Shown here in pieces: positions 21,711 through 61,476 of a DNA stretch of 64,000 nucleotides (position 1 is the first letter of the stretch; the number at the start of each line of letters is the position of its first letter). Location: the IMG/VR virus record IMGVR_UViG_3300047321_000298, positions 32,001-96,000 of that record, one strand, 5' to 3'. The position numbers and the translations under genes are program-made. The notes under the pieces are model-generated. The model worked only from the letters and a program-made list of their open reading frames with translations. It was not told the origin of the DNA and made no database searches. The stretch is from a virus (taxonomy: Duplodnaviria > Caudoviricetes).

Positions 21711-21934
21711 CTCTTTGTCCCCTTAGCTAGGGCTCGCGCTTTCTCCAGCGGAACCAGATAGACGCGATCATTTGATGCCAGAGTAAATCGCACCAGGTCA
21801 GGATCAGAGGACTGACGAACTCCAAACTTTGTACCTTTCTCCAAAGTAACACTGCTCGTTATCTTCAACGACCGGCCGCTGTAAGTGAACCAGTCGAAGT
21901 TTTCCTCAGTTTTCTTCAGAAGGAAGCTGTACAT
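21707..21934 (-). CDS. Hypothetical protein
   Basis: Translationally coupled to the portal gene. Confidence 0.65.
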   Translation of the reverse strand: MYSFLLKKTEENFDWFTYSGRSLKITSSVTLEKGTKFGVRQSSDPDLVRFTLASNDRVYLVPLEKARALAKGTKR

Positions 21935-23829
21935 TATTTGTAATTCCCAAAACCCGGAAGCGTTGCGCGGCCCAGCTTTTGCACGTTAGCCCGACGCAGC
22001 TTCTCCTGATAGTGCGGGTCACCATCGACCTTCTTCGCGATCTTCATAATCTGATCGTGCGCACGGTGGCGACGGTCTGCCATCGCCGCAGAAGGGATGT
22101 GCCGAACCTGATCGGTTTTCGTCAGCGCCCACGCATCACCCGAATCACCGAAGTCACGTGAAAGCAGGGGCTTGCGGTACGCGCGTTGTTGCATGAGGTT
22201 TGCGCTCATCGACGTATGCTGGTTAGTCCGTTCGATCAATGCGGAGAGTTCCGGCTGCTCTGCGTCATCGATTTCACGCTCGTCATCATCGAACTCGTTG
22301 GAGAAATGATCCTCGCCTTCGTGCGACGTATCCTTGCCGGTGAATTCCTCCAGGCGCTGACGCAACACCTTGTCTTCATCGAGGTCGCGTACCAGCGCGT
22401 CCGGGTCGATCTTTGCAGCGGCCATCCACATCTTGAGAGGGATAGGGACGCCCTTTTCCGAAGCCATTTCGAGCAGTTCCATCATGTTCTCTTCGCCCTT
22501 CGCTTCAAGCTCCTTGTGCCAGTGAAGCTGCGGCATCTTGAGGTTCGAACGGTTGGCGCGGTTGAACAGGAAGTCCACAATCTTGCCGCTCTTCGCTTTG
22601 TTCTTCGGATCGACATACAGATCGTTGACCACAGCAATCAGCGGGAACAGCTTCGCATAGAAGACGCGGTCTGTCAGGTCTGTGCGGTAGCTATTCATCG
22701 TTTCGAGGAACGTTGAATATGCAGACTCTGCCGCCGCGTACGACGATTCGCCAGACAGGAACGACTCACTGATGCCCAGCGCCCGGAGCTTGTACGGAAC
22801 AAGCACATCGGCCATGTCCGTCCACTTCCAGAAATCGCCACCGGGTCGGATGTCTGCGGCCTGCACCGAATTACGTGTCGAAATCCATCCGCCCAACGGG
22901 TCGAATTCGGCCTGCTGGAACTGCGACACGAGCGCCTGGAGTTCTTCGCCGGTCGGAGTCCAGTTGTCATCGCCAGCCGTCAGGTGAGTCATCGCGCGCT
23001 GACGACGCTGAGCCTCAACAAGCGTCCCACGGAACAGCGTCTTTTCGATCAGATACATCGGCAAGATGCGGTGCAAGTAGGACGTGTATGCGCGGTCCGT
23101 TGTTGAACGGCGCGGGACGAACAGTGTGGTCACCGGGTCCAGCGTGAACGCGCCCGACTTCAGCATGTCCAGGAACTGCGGAGGCATCGAGTCGAGATAC
23201 TTACGCGCGTACTCTGACGTGTCGTGCATGAACTGCTGTGTTGACTGACCAACACGCACATTGATCGTCGGGTCGATACCCCAGAACGGGGAGGGGATCA
23301 CGGCGCAGGACAGCGCGTCATGAATCAGCGTGTCCATGAACTGCTTTGAACGTGGATCGAACACCAACGATCCGCAGAAGAAACCATCAGTCAGGTGAGC
23401 CGTCGATATCGTAGGCATCATCTGGCGGAGGTTCAGTCGGTCTAACGCCTCTTCATAGAACTTCAGTTCTTTCTCTTCCAGACCGCGCAGTTCCCAATCG
23501 GAGAACGGAAAATGCGACTGGATGTCCACAGACGAACCCGCTGTGTTATCGAACAGATACATATCCCGGTAGAACAGGGCTAGGGTAGAGGTGTCGATCA
23601 GATGCGGGTCTGCGGGGATGATACCCGTCATGTAGTACTGGTAGTTCGACTGCCAAAACCCGTTCACGGACATTGATGCGCCGCCCGATGTTCCGCTCAT
23701 ACCCATGCTTGCGGTCACCTGCGTCATCGAACGCGGGGACGCACGGTGTACGATGGTGTTCCCCGGTGATTCGCCCATCATGTTTATTGAGCCGTTTGTA
23801 ACGCCCAAAATGCGCTTCTTGCTGTACAT
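21934..23829 (-). CDS. Portal protein
   Basis: Stem-clip-stem pattern ending LRALGISESFLSGESSYAAAESA; near TerL; AGGA RBS before ATG 23829. Confidence 0.75.
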   Translation of the reverse strand: MYSKKRILGVTNGSINMMGESPGNTIVHRASPRSMTQVTASMGMSGTSGGASMSVNGFWQSNYQYYMTGIIPADPHLIDTSTLALFYRDMYLFDNTAGSSVDIQSHFPFSDWELRGLEEKELKFYEEALDRLNLRQMMPTISTAHLTDGFFCGSLVFDPRSKQFMDTLIHDALSCAVIPSPFWGIDPTINVRVGQSTQQFMHDTSEYARKYLDSMPPQFLDMLKSGAFTLDPVTTLFVPRRSTTDRAYTSYLHRILPMYLIEKTLFRGTLVEAQRRQRAMTHLTAGDDNWTPTGEELQALVSQFQQAEFDPLGGWISTRNSVQAADIRPGGDFWKWTDMADVLVPYKLRALGISESFLSGESSYAAAESAYSTFLETMNSYRTDLTDRVFYAKLFPLIAVVNDLYVDPKNKAKSGKIVDFLFNRANRSNLKMPQLHWHKELEAKGEENMMELLEMASEKGVPIPLKMWMAAAKIDPDALVRDLDEDKVLRQRLEEFTGKDTSHEGEDHFSNEFDDDEREIDDAEQPELSALIERTNQHTSMSANLMQQRAYRKPLLSRDFGDSGDAWALTKTDQVRHIPSAAMADRRHRAHDQIMKIAKKVDGDPHYQEKLRRANVQKLGRATLPGFGNYK

Positions 23830-23866
23830 GTGTTTAATCCTGTTGTTCGATGCACTCGTACACGGC

Positions 23867-24364
23867 TCATTGCCTTGACCTTCGCGCGTATCGGTTAAAG
23901 TCGGCATTCCGGAAGGCCAAACGTATGCATAGGTTCAGCTTTGTGTCAGAGGCGATTTCTCGGTATTCCGCACGTTGAACCATGCGCAGGGTGTACCTAG
24001 CGCTCGCACCGTTCTTGGCTATGAACTTACGGACAACGAAGATGCCAACGCCTTTCGGAATGTCGCCCTTGATCTTCTCGTAGGTCTTGGAACCAACTAC
24101 GAAAAACAATTTATTCGAGTAGTCCAGATACTTGGGCCACTTACCTGCACGGTGATCCACGTAAAAATCAGCGGGGCAGCTTTTGATTTCGCAGATGACG
24201 ACTTCGCCTCTCATGTTGACGGCGAGTAGGTCTGCACGCAGCGCCCCGCTTGGGTTTAATCCGACCTCCGCATTCACCGCATAGCACTTATCTGTGTAAT
24301 ACCTTCGCACCTGATCCTTCAGAAGCTGTGCGATATCCTTGCGGGTCATCTGTGTTTTGATCAT
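23867..24364 (-). CDS. MmcB-like PD-(D/E)xK endonuclease
   Basis: EVGL...RADLLAV...ICEIKS...DF...KWPKYLDY. Confidence 0.75.
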   Translation of the reverse strand: MIKTQMTRKDIAQLLKDQVRRYYTDKCYAVNAEVGLNPSGALRADLLAVNMRGEVVICEIKSCPADFYVDHRAGKWPKYLDYSNKLFFVVGSKTYEKIKGDIPKGVGIFVVRKFIAKNGASARYTLRMVQRAEYREIASDTKLNLCIRLAFRNADFNRYARRSRQ

Positions 24365-40675: not shown

Positions 40676-41776
40676 TTATTGGGCCATCACCTGGACAACG
40701 GGAGCTTGCGGAACGACAGGGATCACAATCGGTTGCGGAACCGGCTGCGGCTGAATCGTGATCGGCGTCTCGACCACTTCCGGGGCGGGTGTGGGCGCTG
40801 CGACTTCGGCAGGGATCAGAGCTTCAGTGACCACTGCGGGAGCCTCCACGGCTGCTTCCGGTGCTCCTGCGACCGTTTCTTGCGCGGCTAGGATCGTAGC
40901 CGGATCGAACTCGCTTTCTGCGGAGCTAACAACGGGCTGCGTTGCTACGGGGCCAAGCTCCACAGCTTCCACGCCCGGGGTCGGTGCCGTATCGAGCGTC
41001 TTGTTCGCCGTGCCCACCAGAACCGCAGCGTACAGGCCGTTCACCGAGTATTCAGGAACGATGCCGATCCATGCGTCCCACACGATTTCGTCACGGCGGA
41101 ACTTCGTCAGGACCGTGAAGTAATCGACCGTGTTGACTTCTGTTGACGGGTGGAACACTTCGCGCAGCGACTCTTCCGTGATGTTGCCTTCGAGCGGGAA
41201 GAGCAGCTTGTGTTCGGTCAGGTCGTATTGTTCGTTGGGCGAGTTCGAGTACAGAACGACTGCCTGCGACAAGTCTTCAGCCGTCAGCTTCGGCATGCGA
41301 AGGTCCGGATTCTGAGAGATTGCGAACGACACGCTCAGATGCGTCGGCTCTTCGTTGCTCGCGGTCAATTCGCGCAGCATCTGCTCCGCAAGCGTCTCGT
41401 CGGAGTTTGTCGTGGCCGGTGCGCGAACAATCAACGAATCTTCGTCTTCGCCGTCGTCCGTGATTTGGATTACCGCGTCGTCTTCGTCTTCAAGGGTGCT
41501 GTAATCAGCCGGGTTGAAGACGATCAGGCGATTCAGGCGCTGTTCAAGCTCGCCATCGACGTTGTAGAACTGGTAGACCTTCAGAAACTTGTCCACGTCA
41601 CGGTTGTACACGTTGCCTTCAACGTCCGTGTAGATGACCTGTGGCGGATGGTCTTCCTGTGTTTTCGGGCTCAGGGTCAGGTTCGTCAGGAACAGGAATT
41701 TGACCTGGCTACCGTCCTTGCGCATCCATACACTGCCTTTTGACAGTTGCAAATCGAGGTTTTCGTTAGACGACAT
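40676..41776 (-). CDS. Acidic hypothetical protein with P/A/V/E-rich tail
   Basis: AGGA RBS; own terminator. Confidence 0.75.
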   Translation of the reverse strand: MSSNENLDLQLSKGSVWMRKDGSQVKFLFLTNLTLSPKTQEDHPPQVIYTDVEGNVYNRDVDKFLKVYQFYNVDGELEQRLNRLIVFNPADYSTLEDEDDAVIQITDDGEDEDSLIVRAPATTNSDETLAEQMLRELTASNEEPTHLSVSFAISQNPDLRMPKLTAEDLSQAVVLYSNSPNEQYDLTEHKLLFPLEGNITEESLREVFHPSTEVNTVDYFTVLTKFRRDEIVWDAWIGIVPEYSVNGLYAAVLVGTANKTLDTAPTPGVEAVELGPVATQPVVSSAESEFDPATILAAQETVAGAPEAAVEAPAVVTEALIPAEVAAPTPAPEVVETPITIQPQPVPQPIVIPVVPQAPVVQVMAQ

Positions 41777-58196: not shown

Positions 58197-58484
58197 TTAC
58201 GAAACGACGCCCATGATTTCAGCTTCTTGGAAAAGCGTCAGTTCTTCACCGTCAACCTCAACCGGGTAACCAGCGTTCGGATTGAAGTGAACGATGTCAC
58301 CGACCTTCACTGTCATAGGTACGACGCGGCCGTCAGCCACGAAATGACCGGCACCGACTGCAACGACTTCGCCCTGATCGGGACGCTGCTCGCGGTTGGA
58401 AGGGATCACGATGCCTGAGGCAGTCGTCTGCGGCTTAACAGTGACACGGACCAGCAAGCGATCATACAGCGGTTGAAACGGCAT
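58197..58484 (-). CDS. groES: Co-chaperonin GroES
   Basis: QPLYDRLLV, TTASGIVIP mobile loop, GEVVAVGAG, VKVGD. Confidence 0.93.
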   Translation of the reverse strand: MPFQPLYDRLLVRVTVKPQTTASGIVIPSNREQRPDQGEVVAVGAGHFVADGRVVPMTVKVGDIVHFNPNAGYPVEVDGEELTLFQEAEIMGVVS

Positions 58485-58513
58485 TTTGTACCTTTGATTT
58501 GAGCAAGAAACTT

Positions 58514-58589
58514 TGGCTCCATAGCCTGGGCTCGAACCAGGGACCAACGGATTAACAGTCCGCTACTCTACCAACTGAGCTACTATGGA
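58514..58589 (-). tRNA. tRNA-Asn(GTT)
   Basis: Canonical 76-nt cloverleaf with CCA. Confidence 0.95.
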
Positions 58590-60076: not shown

Positions 60077-60289
60077 TTACAGAATGAATAACAGTTCCCT
60101 GAGCTTGCCGTTCTGCTCCAGCAATACCTTGCAACCCGCGTCTCGCTGCTTCTGCAAGAAGCTCTCGGTGCTGATGGCCCTGCGTACGGCTTCTGACAGG
60201 CTGATGCTTTGCGATTCCGCTAGATACTGGAGAGCGTCAGCCACGTCCGGTGCGAGGTCTGCGTTCAATCTCACTTTCTTCGTCTTCAT
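60077..60289 (-). CDS. Ribbon-helix-helix (CopG-like) DNA-binding protein
   Basis: KVRLNADL...LQYLAE...SLSEAVRRAI. Confidence 0.75.
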   Translation of the reverse strand: MKTKKVRLNADLAPDVADALQYLAESQSISLSEAVRRAISTESFLQKQRDAGCKVLLEQNGKLRELLFIL

Positions 60290-60419: not shown

Positions 60420-61025
60420 CTATTGCGGTTCGAACGTGAACTTTTCCAGGAACTCTGAAACCGGACGCGACCATATGGCACCAGCTTCGTCACGGTACAC
60501 GACAGTCGGAACGAAATCCGGCTTTGTCGAGCGTTCGTTCGACACGATGAGAACTTCGTATTCGTTGCCAGTCTTCGGGTGCGTCCACTTGCGGCCTGCT
60601 CGCAGATTTTCAGGAATCGGCGCGGGGGCACGGACTGCAGCCACGTTTACGACTTCCGCACCTTGCACAAACGTGGTCGTAAACTCCACGCAGTCACGGG
60701 TTGCGACGAGTCCGATTTTGCCATCGTCAACGTTCAAGCCTTTGGTGAAGCGTGCAGCGATGTCCTGAAGCTCAGCCTCGGTCGGGGTCCACGAGTCGTT
60801 GCCTGCCGTGATGTGAAGCAGCGTGCGTACTTTGTCTGTCATGTTCGATCCTTCGTTCAGTCCTTTCTTGTAGGACTGGAAAATTGCGTCTGCTAGGCAT
60901 GGAACATCCCAAGGACGCTTGTTGATAAACAAGGAGGCGATTGAGTTGGCTTCGCTCATGCACCACGCGGGGATTCCGTGAAACGTTCCGTCATCTCTGG
61001 CGTTGAAACCTTCGGGCATCGTCAT
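60420..61025 (-). CDS. Fusion of a portal-clip-like segment and a DUF1653-like domain
   Basis: HITAGNDSWTPTEAELQ vs portal HLTAGDDNWTPTGEELQ; C-terminal WTHPKTGNEYEV...VVYRD...IWSRPVSEFLEKF. Confidence 0.75.
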   Translation of the reverse strand: MTMPEGFNARDDGTFHGIPAWCMSEANSIASLFINKRPWDVPCLADAIFQSYKKGLNEGSNMTDKVRTLLHITAGNDSWTPTEAELQDIAARFTKGLNVDDGKIGLVATRDCVEFTTTFVQGAEVVNVAAVRAPAPIPENLRAGRKWTHPKTGNEYEVLIVSNERSTKPDFVPTVVYRDEAGAIWSRPVSEFLEKFTFEPQ

Positions 61026-61204
61026 AGATCAAGAAATGTTTTGTAGAAGGACTCGAACTGCTTTTCGCATTCGATGATTGCCATCTGCTCAGCGTCCGGC
61101 CGTCCCTTCAATAGTTTGCGTCTGCGCCGGATGTCCTCGAAGTCCAGAAGCATAGACTTGTAGAATTCCGGATCGAAGAAATCACGGTTGGATATCAGCA
61201 CCAT
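61022..61204 (-). CDS. Hypothetical protein
   Basis: Coupled ORF. Confidence 0.5.
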   Translation of the reverse strand: MVLISNRDFFDPEFYKSMLLDFEDIRRRRKLLKGRPDAEQMAIIECEKQFESFYKTFLDL

Positions 61205-61476
61205 ACGACTTTGTTTTCGCGCACGAAGTAGTGCGAGTTGCACGGCATCTGGAAATTGCCGATAGAAGGGGAGAGCGTCACCTTGCCGTCGATGTTCGTC
61301 ATGGACCAGCCGGTGTACGGATTGTGAATCGGGGTGACCGTCTGTTGGTTACACCAGCCACACGCACACAGGTGGATTGCTACCCCGTATTTCTCGGATA
61401 TGTACAGCTTGCCTTGTTCGAGTTCGGAGTCGATAAGCTCAACGAAAACAGGCTCCAGTTCAAACAGCTTGGTCAT
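61195..61476 (-). CDS. DUF6527-like protein
   Basis: HLCACG...VTP...W...VTLSPSIGN...C.SHYFVR. Confidence 0.75.
   Translation of the reverse strand: MTKLFELEPVFVELIDSELEQGKLYISEKYGVAIHLCACGWCNQQTVTPIHNPYTGWSMTNIDGKVTLSPSIGNFQMPCNSHYFVRENKVVWC

Follow-up and report, generated by a model that had tools for sequence, protein, structure and literature searches.

Why would a phage encode a relative of its portal clip outside the portal, in a small gene far from its structural genes, and what might a free clip do there? The question is raised by a minus-strand gene in a 64,000-nucleotide stretch of viral DNA (hereafter the window; bases 32001-96000 of a viral contig that is complete at 245.5 kb and has terminal repeats). 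Its product, P0001, was described in an original prediction as a two-part protein in which a stand-alone copy of the phage's own portal clip is fused to a DUF1653-like domain and acts as a decoy against portal-sensing defences or as a regulator of packaging. Published work describes the clip as three strands and one helix that join two stem helices, and as the place where terminase and tail dock (PMC12847820). This knob at the outer end of the portal is a hub for the terminase, for neck proteins and for at least two kinds of bacterial immune sensor, and a large, conserved and overlooked family of free clips gives a direct handle on its interactions. We find that the middle of P0001 belongs to such a family, in which a known virion domain, previously unnamed in this form, leads a second life as small accessory proteins. 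Literature searches returned no account of free clip domains, a clip paralogue, a portal decoy or a phage-encoded clip decoy.

The gene and its neighbourhood

The phage that encodes P0001 as an accessory protein is a phiRSL1-like jumbo phage of 245 kb, with hosts that are probably soil Betaproteobacteria. The P0001 gene and the features around it are as follows.

60420..61025, minus strand: P0001 gene, 201 amino acids in three domains (from the ORF list and the sequence)
61022..61243, minus strand: 73-aa ORF upstream of P0001, its stop overlapping the P0001 start
61195..61476, minus strand: DUF6527 gene (PF20137, 'BubE'; Pfam E 1.9e-16)
60077-60289, minus strand: RHH-like ORF of 70 aa directly downstream of P0001, with a weak, below-cut-off match to ribbon-helix-helix (CopG) proteins (E 0.0016)
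58197..58547, minus strand: Cpn10/GroES gene (Pfam E 2.5e-27), 1.9 kb downstream of P0001
55290-55937, minus strand: ORF of 215 aa with NUMOD3 and GIY-YIG-like matches, within a region of tRNAs and tRNA-like RNAs

In the sequence ATGA the start codon of P0001 shares bases with the stop of the ORF before it, an arrangement that suggests translational coupling; a family match was sought for this 73-aa ORF and none was found. The order of the neighbourhood (DUF6527, 73-aa ORF, P0001, RHH-like ORF, tRNAs, GroES and then DUF7873) is syntenic, with DUF6527 as the upstream marker of the module gene or genes in the window and, in identical order, in the metagenomic phage contigs L059 and L061, and with GroES as the downstream marker in these three and in BcepSaruman and Motura. 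The gene lies 37 kb from that of the portal, in a tRNA-rich accessory region away from the structural genes, and the region is of accessory or early type and not a morphogenesis block. The 215-aa ORF is, from its sequence matches, a probable homing endonuclease. A tie of DUF6527/'BubE' to bacterial ubiquitin-like systems would suit a counter-defence island.

A search for loci related to P0001 alone returned as its only match a near-identical contig from the same sample. The gene is covered without indels, junction included, by contigs of four independent rhizosphere runs, so the fused form is not an assembly artefact; one contig of run X2 spans the whole gene at a depth of 84. Among the public runs with the sequence, no RNA data set is listed. 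The rhizosphere runs differ from the window at three positions: at 60577 all four have A, not G, on the plus strand, which changes Pro150 to Leu in the DUF1653 barrel, and two more differences are found at 60660 and 60684. Comparison of P0001 with its orthologues gives dN/dS values of 0.15-0.34, with dS near saturation, and by this measure the fused form is under purifying selection.

Three domains, two of them unrelated to the portal

Where the original prediction saw two parts, overlooking the N-terminal one, we distinguish three domains in P0001.

60843..61025, minus strand: N-terminal domain 'PEGF...WDVP', residues 1-61, two helices (pLDDT 93-98)
60651..60842, minus strand: portal-clip-like module, residues 62-125, with a strand at 66-74, a helix at 83-97, a conserved 'GLVATR' segment and a strand at 113-121
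60426..60608, minus strand: DUF1653-type small beta-barrel (SH3/Tudor-like), residues 140-200, preceded by a 14-residue linker (126-139)

The N-terminal domain has no Pfam match. It is found alone in proteins of 62-101 aa and at the N-terminus of larger ones (340-370 aa), and it is a separate mobile phage domain, unrelated to the portal. A portal-derived origin was considered for it, since a tblastn match joined residues 3-116 of P0001 to the Motura portal (E 9e-4), and was rejected: hhalign gives the N-domain family and the portal family a probability of 0.35%, and the domain is independently mobile. Its motif, 'LPEGF...GIPxWAM..AN...R.WDVP', is widespread and unnamed, and recurs in P0011-P0017, P0042, P0065, P0075, P0092 and P0113; some of the 340-370-aa proteins end in 'WMPLP' motifs that may resemble DUF551.

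The DUF1653-like C-terminus that had been predicted is real. It is matched by Pfam PF07866 (E 9.9e-5, with a score of 23.1 bits that lies 0.4 bits under the cut-off of 23.5), by phrog_4767 (E 2.9e-11), by the DUF1653 crystal structure 3be3 (chain 3be3_B, Z 6.2, rmsd 3.0, 60 aligned residues) and, in Foldseek, by phage DUF1653 proteins of BFVD (E 8.8e-6 to 4e-4). A shape search of the ESM Atlas returned rows of the DUF1653 type only, one DUF1653 cluster having a TM of 0.79 by the hit, and CarD aligns to the barrel at Z 6.7. The model thus places residues 140-200 in the 3be3-like class of small SH3/Tudor-like barrels. P0001 resembles DUF1653 (PF07866; 3be3) in the sequence and beta-barrel fold of its C-terminal 60 residues, and differs from it in that the barrel is fused to two other domains. 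Functional work on DUF1653 was sought in the literature and none was found. A second DUF1653-like barrel opens a 366-aa protein at 40676-41776 of the window (minus strand), where it is followed by a long tail rich in Pro, Ala and Val; it matches P0001 140-198 weakly (E 8.4e-4) and has no Pfam match.

Homology of the middle module to the portal clip

The portal protein of this phage is of the phiRSL1/BcepSauron type, with an identity of 67% to the portal of Ralstonia phage phiRSL1 and of 64% to that of Burkholderia phage BcepSauron, and it contains the segment with which the middle module is compared.

21934..23907, minus strand: portal protein gene, 657 aa (phrog_16240, E 1.6e-208)
22837..23019, minus strand: portal segment 297-357, the end of stem helix alpha3 and the clip, homologous to the free module

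The similarity was first noted between residues 71-87 of P0001 (HITAGNDSWTPTEAELQ; 60765-60815, minus strand) and residues 308-324 of the portal (HLTAGDDNWTPTGEELQ; 22936-22986), and both sets of positions are exact. The match itself holds and its count does not: 11 of 17 residues had been given as identical and a recount gives 12. As had also been claimed, the likeness continues past these 17 residues, with 19 identities over 50 (38%) between P0001 65-114 and portal 302-349. A BLASTP comparison of the pair shows P0001 62-125 to be homologous to portal 297-357 (E 4e-8), and the PHROG portal profile phrog_16240 matches P0001 52-122 (E 3.2e-4). The relationship is also found in the opposite direction, as a profile built from the small proteins alone recovers full-length portals among 1.84 billion representative proteins (E about 1e-4), and in hhalign a profile of 35 small-protein modules aligns to columns 299-359 of a 30-member portal profile with a probability of 99.1% (E 1.9e-18). 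A tblastn search of 50,697 phage records with P0001 1-140 returned portals only. By every one of these comparisons the similarity is far beyond chance, and P0001 62-125 is best described as a true homologue of the portal clip.

In the 30-portal alignment the segment 297-357 is the most conserved stretch of the portal family, with a run of invariant residues, and 12 positions are conserved both in 135 free modules and in 43 portal segments: H71, G75, W79, P81, T82, E85, L86, F93, A/G96, T109, R110 and V113 in P0001 numbering. The free module thereby keeps the clip signature H..G..W.PT..EL.....F..A...TR..V. With the clip of the phiRSL1/BcepSauron-type portals (phrog_16240) it shares these 12 positions, the order of strand, helix and strands, and the phage lineage. 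Unlike that clip, it is a free-standing unit of 60-70 residues without wing, stem or crown, its gene lies in the accessory region, and it often occurs as a tandem duplicate or in fusion with small domains of unrelated kinds. P0001 was also considered as a portal of the phrog_16240 type in its own right and was rejected as such, being 201 aa long against about 550-700 aa for the full architecture of wing, stem, clip and crown; the portal-family HMM covers just 52 of its residues.

Position and fold of the shared segment

PDB sequence searches with P0001 and with the portal gave no matches, and the structural comparison rests on AF2 models. For the portal model (mean pLDDT 62.7) the comparison gives Z 17-18 with the portals of lambda, G20c and T4, and Z 14-18 once Mu is included. 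Residues 306-361 of the model are flanked by the long stem helices (alpha3 and alpha5) at 277-305 and 362-376, so the segment sits where the clip is expected, as had been predicted. The clip stretch itself is modelled at pLDDT <50; low pLDDT is common for parts that depend on ring contacts.

The model of P0001 is better defined (mean pLDDT 86.9), the two strands and the helix of the module standing at pLDDT 70-90. The clip had been expected to show a beta-alpha-beta-beta order, of which the model gives beta-alpha-beta, the conserved 'VATR' segment not being a strand, and the top structural matches are the stem-clip regions of two solved portals. In an exhaustive structural search, P0001 39-123 matched best the Mycofy1 portal at residues 222-299 (Z 5.5, rmsd 4.7 A, 76 aligned) and the Mu portal at 210-280 (Z 5.4, rmsd 5.4 A, 71 aligned), values of Z that are modest and within the background range. 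By interpolation from the portal-to-Mu alignment, Mu 210-280 corresponds to about 286-365 of the window portal, which is the homologous segment. In a Foldseek search of the P0001 model against the PDB the module had no significant match and the C-terminal barrel alone scored. Structural identity of the free module with the clip is, on these models, likely but not proven.

A fusion of two tandem genes

The original prediction also overlooked that the P0001 gene combines two tandem genes, which are separate in related phiRSL1-like jumbo phages. The loci of L059 and L061 contain two overlapping genes, the first encoding the N-domain and a module (P0003, P0006) and the second a module and a DUF1653 domain (P0004, P0005). 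In alignments P0001 spans the entire first gene, at 65-68% identity, and at 46-47% only the distal part of the second. One module must therefore have been lost, and the alignments indicate that P0001 arose by fusion of the two tandem genes with loss of the second module. Its syntenic orthologues are 64-68% identical to it, with dN/dS of 0.15-0.26.

The module had been called a copy of the phage's own portal clip, yet it is 51-57% identical to its orthologues in other phages as against 38% to the portal of its own phage, and a recent derivation from that portal gives way to membership of a large, old and diversified family of free modules.

A large family of free clip modules

The family comprises >110 clusters of proteins of 50-250 aa, a third of which have two modules. 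Among the best 150 representatives, the non-portal proteins include 83 with a single module and 36 with two; 6 have the N-domain and a module, 17 the N-domain alone, and 14 are portals. The partners to which the module is fused are DUF1653, a WYL_2-like barrel, a DUF7768 deoxyribosyltransferase-like domain, a major-capsid-like region and tandem repeats. In a tree of 178 segments, portals and free modules are split by a single, weakly supported branch (SH-aLRT 63). No Pfam entry covers the family. Two PHROG families whose function is not assigned, phrog_11049 and phrog_35504, have profiles that match portal 300-355 and resemble the module in being small phage proteins that match the same portal segment; family members other than P0001 match phrog_11049 at 1e-7 to 1e-3, whereas P0001 has no match to either at E 0.1, and both families stand without a name or a noted link to portals. 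An ESM Atlas feature search with a 71-aa family member gave no usable match.

All ten related large viral genomes searched in IMG/VR have a portal copy and most have a non-portal copy, the latter with strong matches in BcepSauron, in Motura and in three metagenomic genomes, and with weaker ones in phiRSL1 and in two more. In single-sequence tblastn searches of cultured phages the module occurs only in genomes with this portal type, and free copies only in BcepSauron/Saruman, BCSR5 and Motura. Copy number and architecture vary between close relatives. The family merits a name and a Pfam entry, and its cultured carriers make it testable: BcepSauron/Saruman with the two-module protein P0019, Motura with QDH83427.1 and BCSR5 with QRE00113.1.

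Several members have further features. The two-module proteins P0020 and P0023, from short contigs (loci L093 and L092 respectively), have signal-peptide-like N-termini, with a twin-arginine-like 'RRSFLVG' and a lipobox-like 'KRRTLLASALGIL...ALSC'; these motifs suggest export, which is hard to square with a cytoplasmic role. In P0090 (475 aa) a clip-like module, at 274-328, occurs together with a region that matches a family of major head proteins (phrog_2522, E 4.5e-9). Elsewhere in the genome studied here, beyond the window, the module profile has a third and very weak match (E 0.11), in a 264-aa frame at G000:C1:100166-100333.

What a free clip might do

The reading towards which we lean, tentatively and at somewhat less than an even chance, is that the free module is a soluble clip mimic which competes for a protein that binds the clip. 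From its retention of the clip signature we infer that it could mimic the docking surface of the portal: the module would present the clip surface in soluble form and would bind, and compete for, a protein whose usual ligand is the clip, with avidity or a second specificity perhaps supplied by the domains on either side of it in P0001. We count for this the homology, the position and fold of the clip, the size of the family, its recurrence beside the cognate portal, the evidence of selection and the accessory character of the gene. On the other side, the conserved positions could do no more than determine the fold; agreement with the structures of solved clips is modest (Z 5.4-5.5, rmsd 4.7-5.4 A), and the clip of the phage's own portal is modelled at pLDDT <50; and the signal-peptide-like P0020 and P0023 fit a cytoplasmic packaging or immune target poorly.

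Two kinds of partner can be envisaged for such a mimic. That P0001 binds a host immune sensor of the clip, as a decoy or sponge, is by analogy possible, if doubtful. Activation of SpbK comes about by its clustering on the ring of clips, with escape through a mutation in the clip helix, and the contacts of Avs4 with portal monomers involve stem, clip and wing (PMC12847820). The decoy idea stays plausible because the clip is the epitope sensed by SpbK and part of the footprint of Avs4 (PMC12847820). SpbK/YonE of the Bacillus phage SPbeta and Avs4 thus supply its premise, that the clip is a surface recognised by host defences (PMC12847820), with the difference that SpbK and Avs4 are host sensors and the free clip module is a phage protein. 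A monomeric clip might occupy an SpbK-like sensor without the clustering caused by the 12-mer ring, the form of the decoy idea that we find most attractive, and a decoy would lack the 12-fold platform or the full monomer surface required for activation of the sensor. That free clips, as monomers or tandem dimers, soak up sensors of the SpbK-like, Avs4 or Avs11 type without activating them is, on this analogy, unlikely in our estimate. The clip alone makes up no more than a part of what Avs4 contacts, and binding of a decoy might set a sensor off rather than block it. The variable, fast-changing architecture of the module gene and its location favour a conflict gene. The other partner, which we also think improbable, is the phage's own terminase or neck adaptor, so that the free clip would exert timing control on packaging or head completion; a phage partner specific to the lineage would likewise agree with the way conservation runs in parallel in portals and free modules. 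Decoy modules would represent the first counter-measure found to immunity directed at conserved virion proteins, and a new class of counter-defence, by mimicry of the phage's own conserved virion protein; if the modules are packaging regulators, they would reveal a hidden control step in the filling of jumbo-phage heads.

The alternative that survives best, one with a real minority chance of being right, is that the clip fold has been re-used for an unrelated job, as a generic small alpha/beta domain for interaction or oligomerisation that has spread among the accessory proteins of jumbo phages. What P0001 does would then depend on its N-domain and DUF1653 barrel and not on the partners of the portal. 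The great diversity of domains to which the module is fused (DUF1653, WYL_2-like, DUF7768, capsid-like and tandem repeats), the signal-peptide-like N-termini of some members, the place of the P0001 gene amid early or accessory genes and not morphogenesis genes, and the resemblance of the DUF1653 barrel to the RNA-polymerase-binding Tudor-like domains of CarD and UvrD all speak for such re-use. It accounts less well for the 12 positions, the polar H, T, E, T and R among them, that are conserved in portals as well as in free modules, and for the finding that the free copies of cultured phages occur only where the portal has the same clip sequence type.

A third possibility, which seems to us quite improbable, is that the module binds the portal itself. 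The clips of neighbouring subunits touch one another in the ring, so that portal monomers could be capped by a free module, acting as a chaperone or as a shield from monomer-sensing immunity (Avs4), or the ring assembly of a co-infecting relative could be poisoned. The module is homologous to the clip, all four portal subdomains, the clip included, add to the contacts between subunits (PMC12847820), and the frequent two-module proteins could imitate adjacent clips; that the 'VATR' segment is not a strand in the AF2 model is what would be expected if it paired with a neighbour. A predicted complex of four module copies, with a score of 0.22 (mark 0.42), speaks neither for nor against self-association. 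A poison of the portal would, however, hurt the phage that makes it unless tightly timed. That P0001 is a non-functional relic of a partial duplication of the portal gene or of a homing-element event, as the intein-like and other insertions beside the clip in the portal genes of relatives and the homing endonucleases nearby might suggest, is close to refuted by an intact ORF with a coupled start, by the identity and dN/dS of its syntenic orthologues, by a motif kept in >110 diverged clusters, and by the lower similarity of the module to the portal of this phage than to its orthologues elsewhere.

Insertions beside the clip in related portals

Some portals of this type are enlarged next to the segment discussed above. 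P0119, P0133, P0154 and P0158 (1016-1047 aa) have a large, intein-like insertion with endonuclease-like matches directly after the clip, and the portal match ends at about residue 300-340 in the portals that bear insertions. Insertions or interrupted matches were seen at loci L046-L048, L050, L052, L054, L056 and L057; in other relatives the portal match ends at residue 389, and L052 contains about 116 additional residues in frame. It seems that mobile elements are directed at the best-conserved region of this portal.
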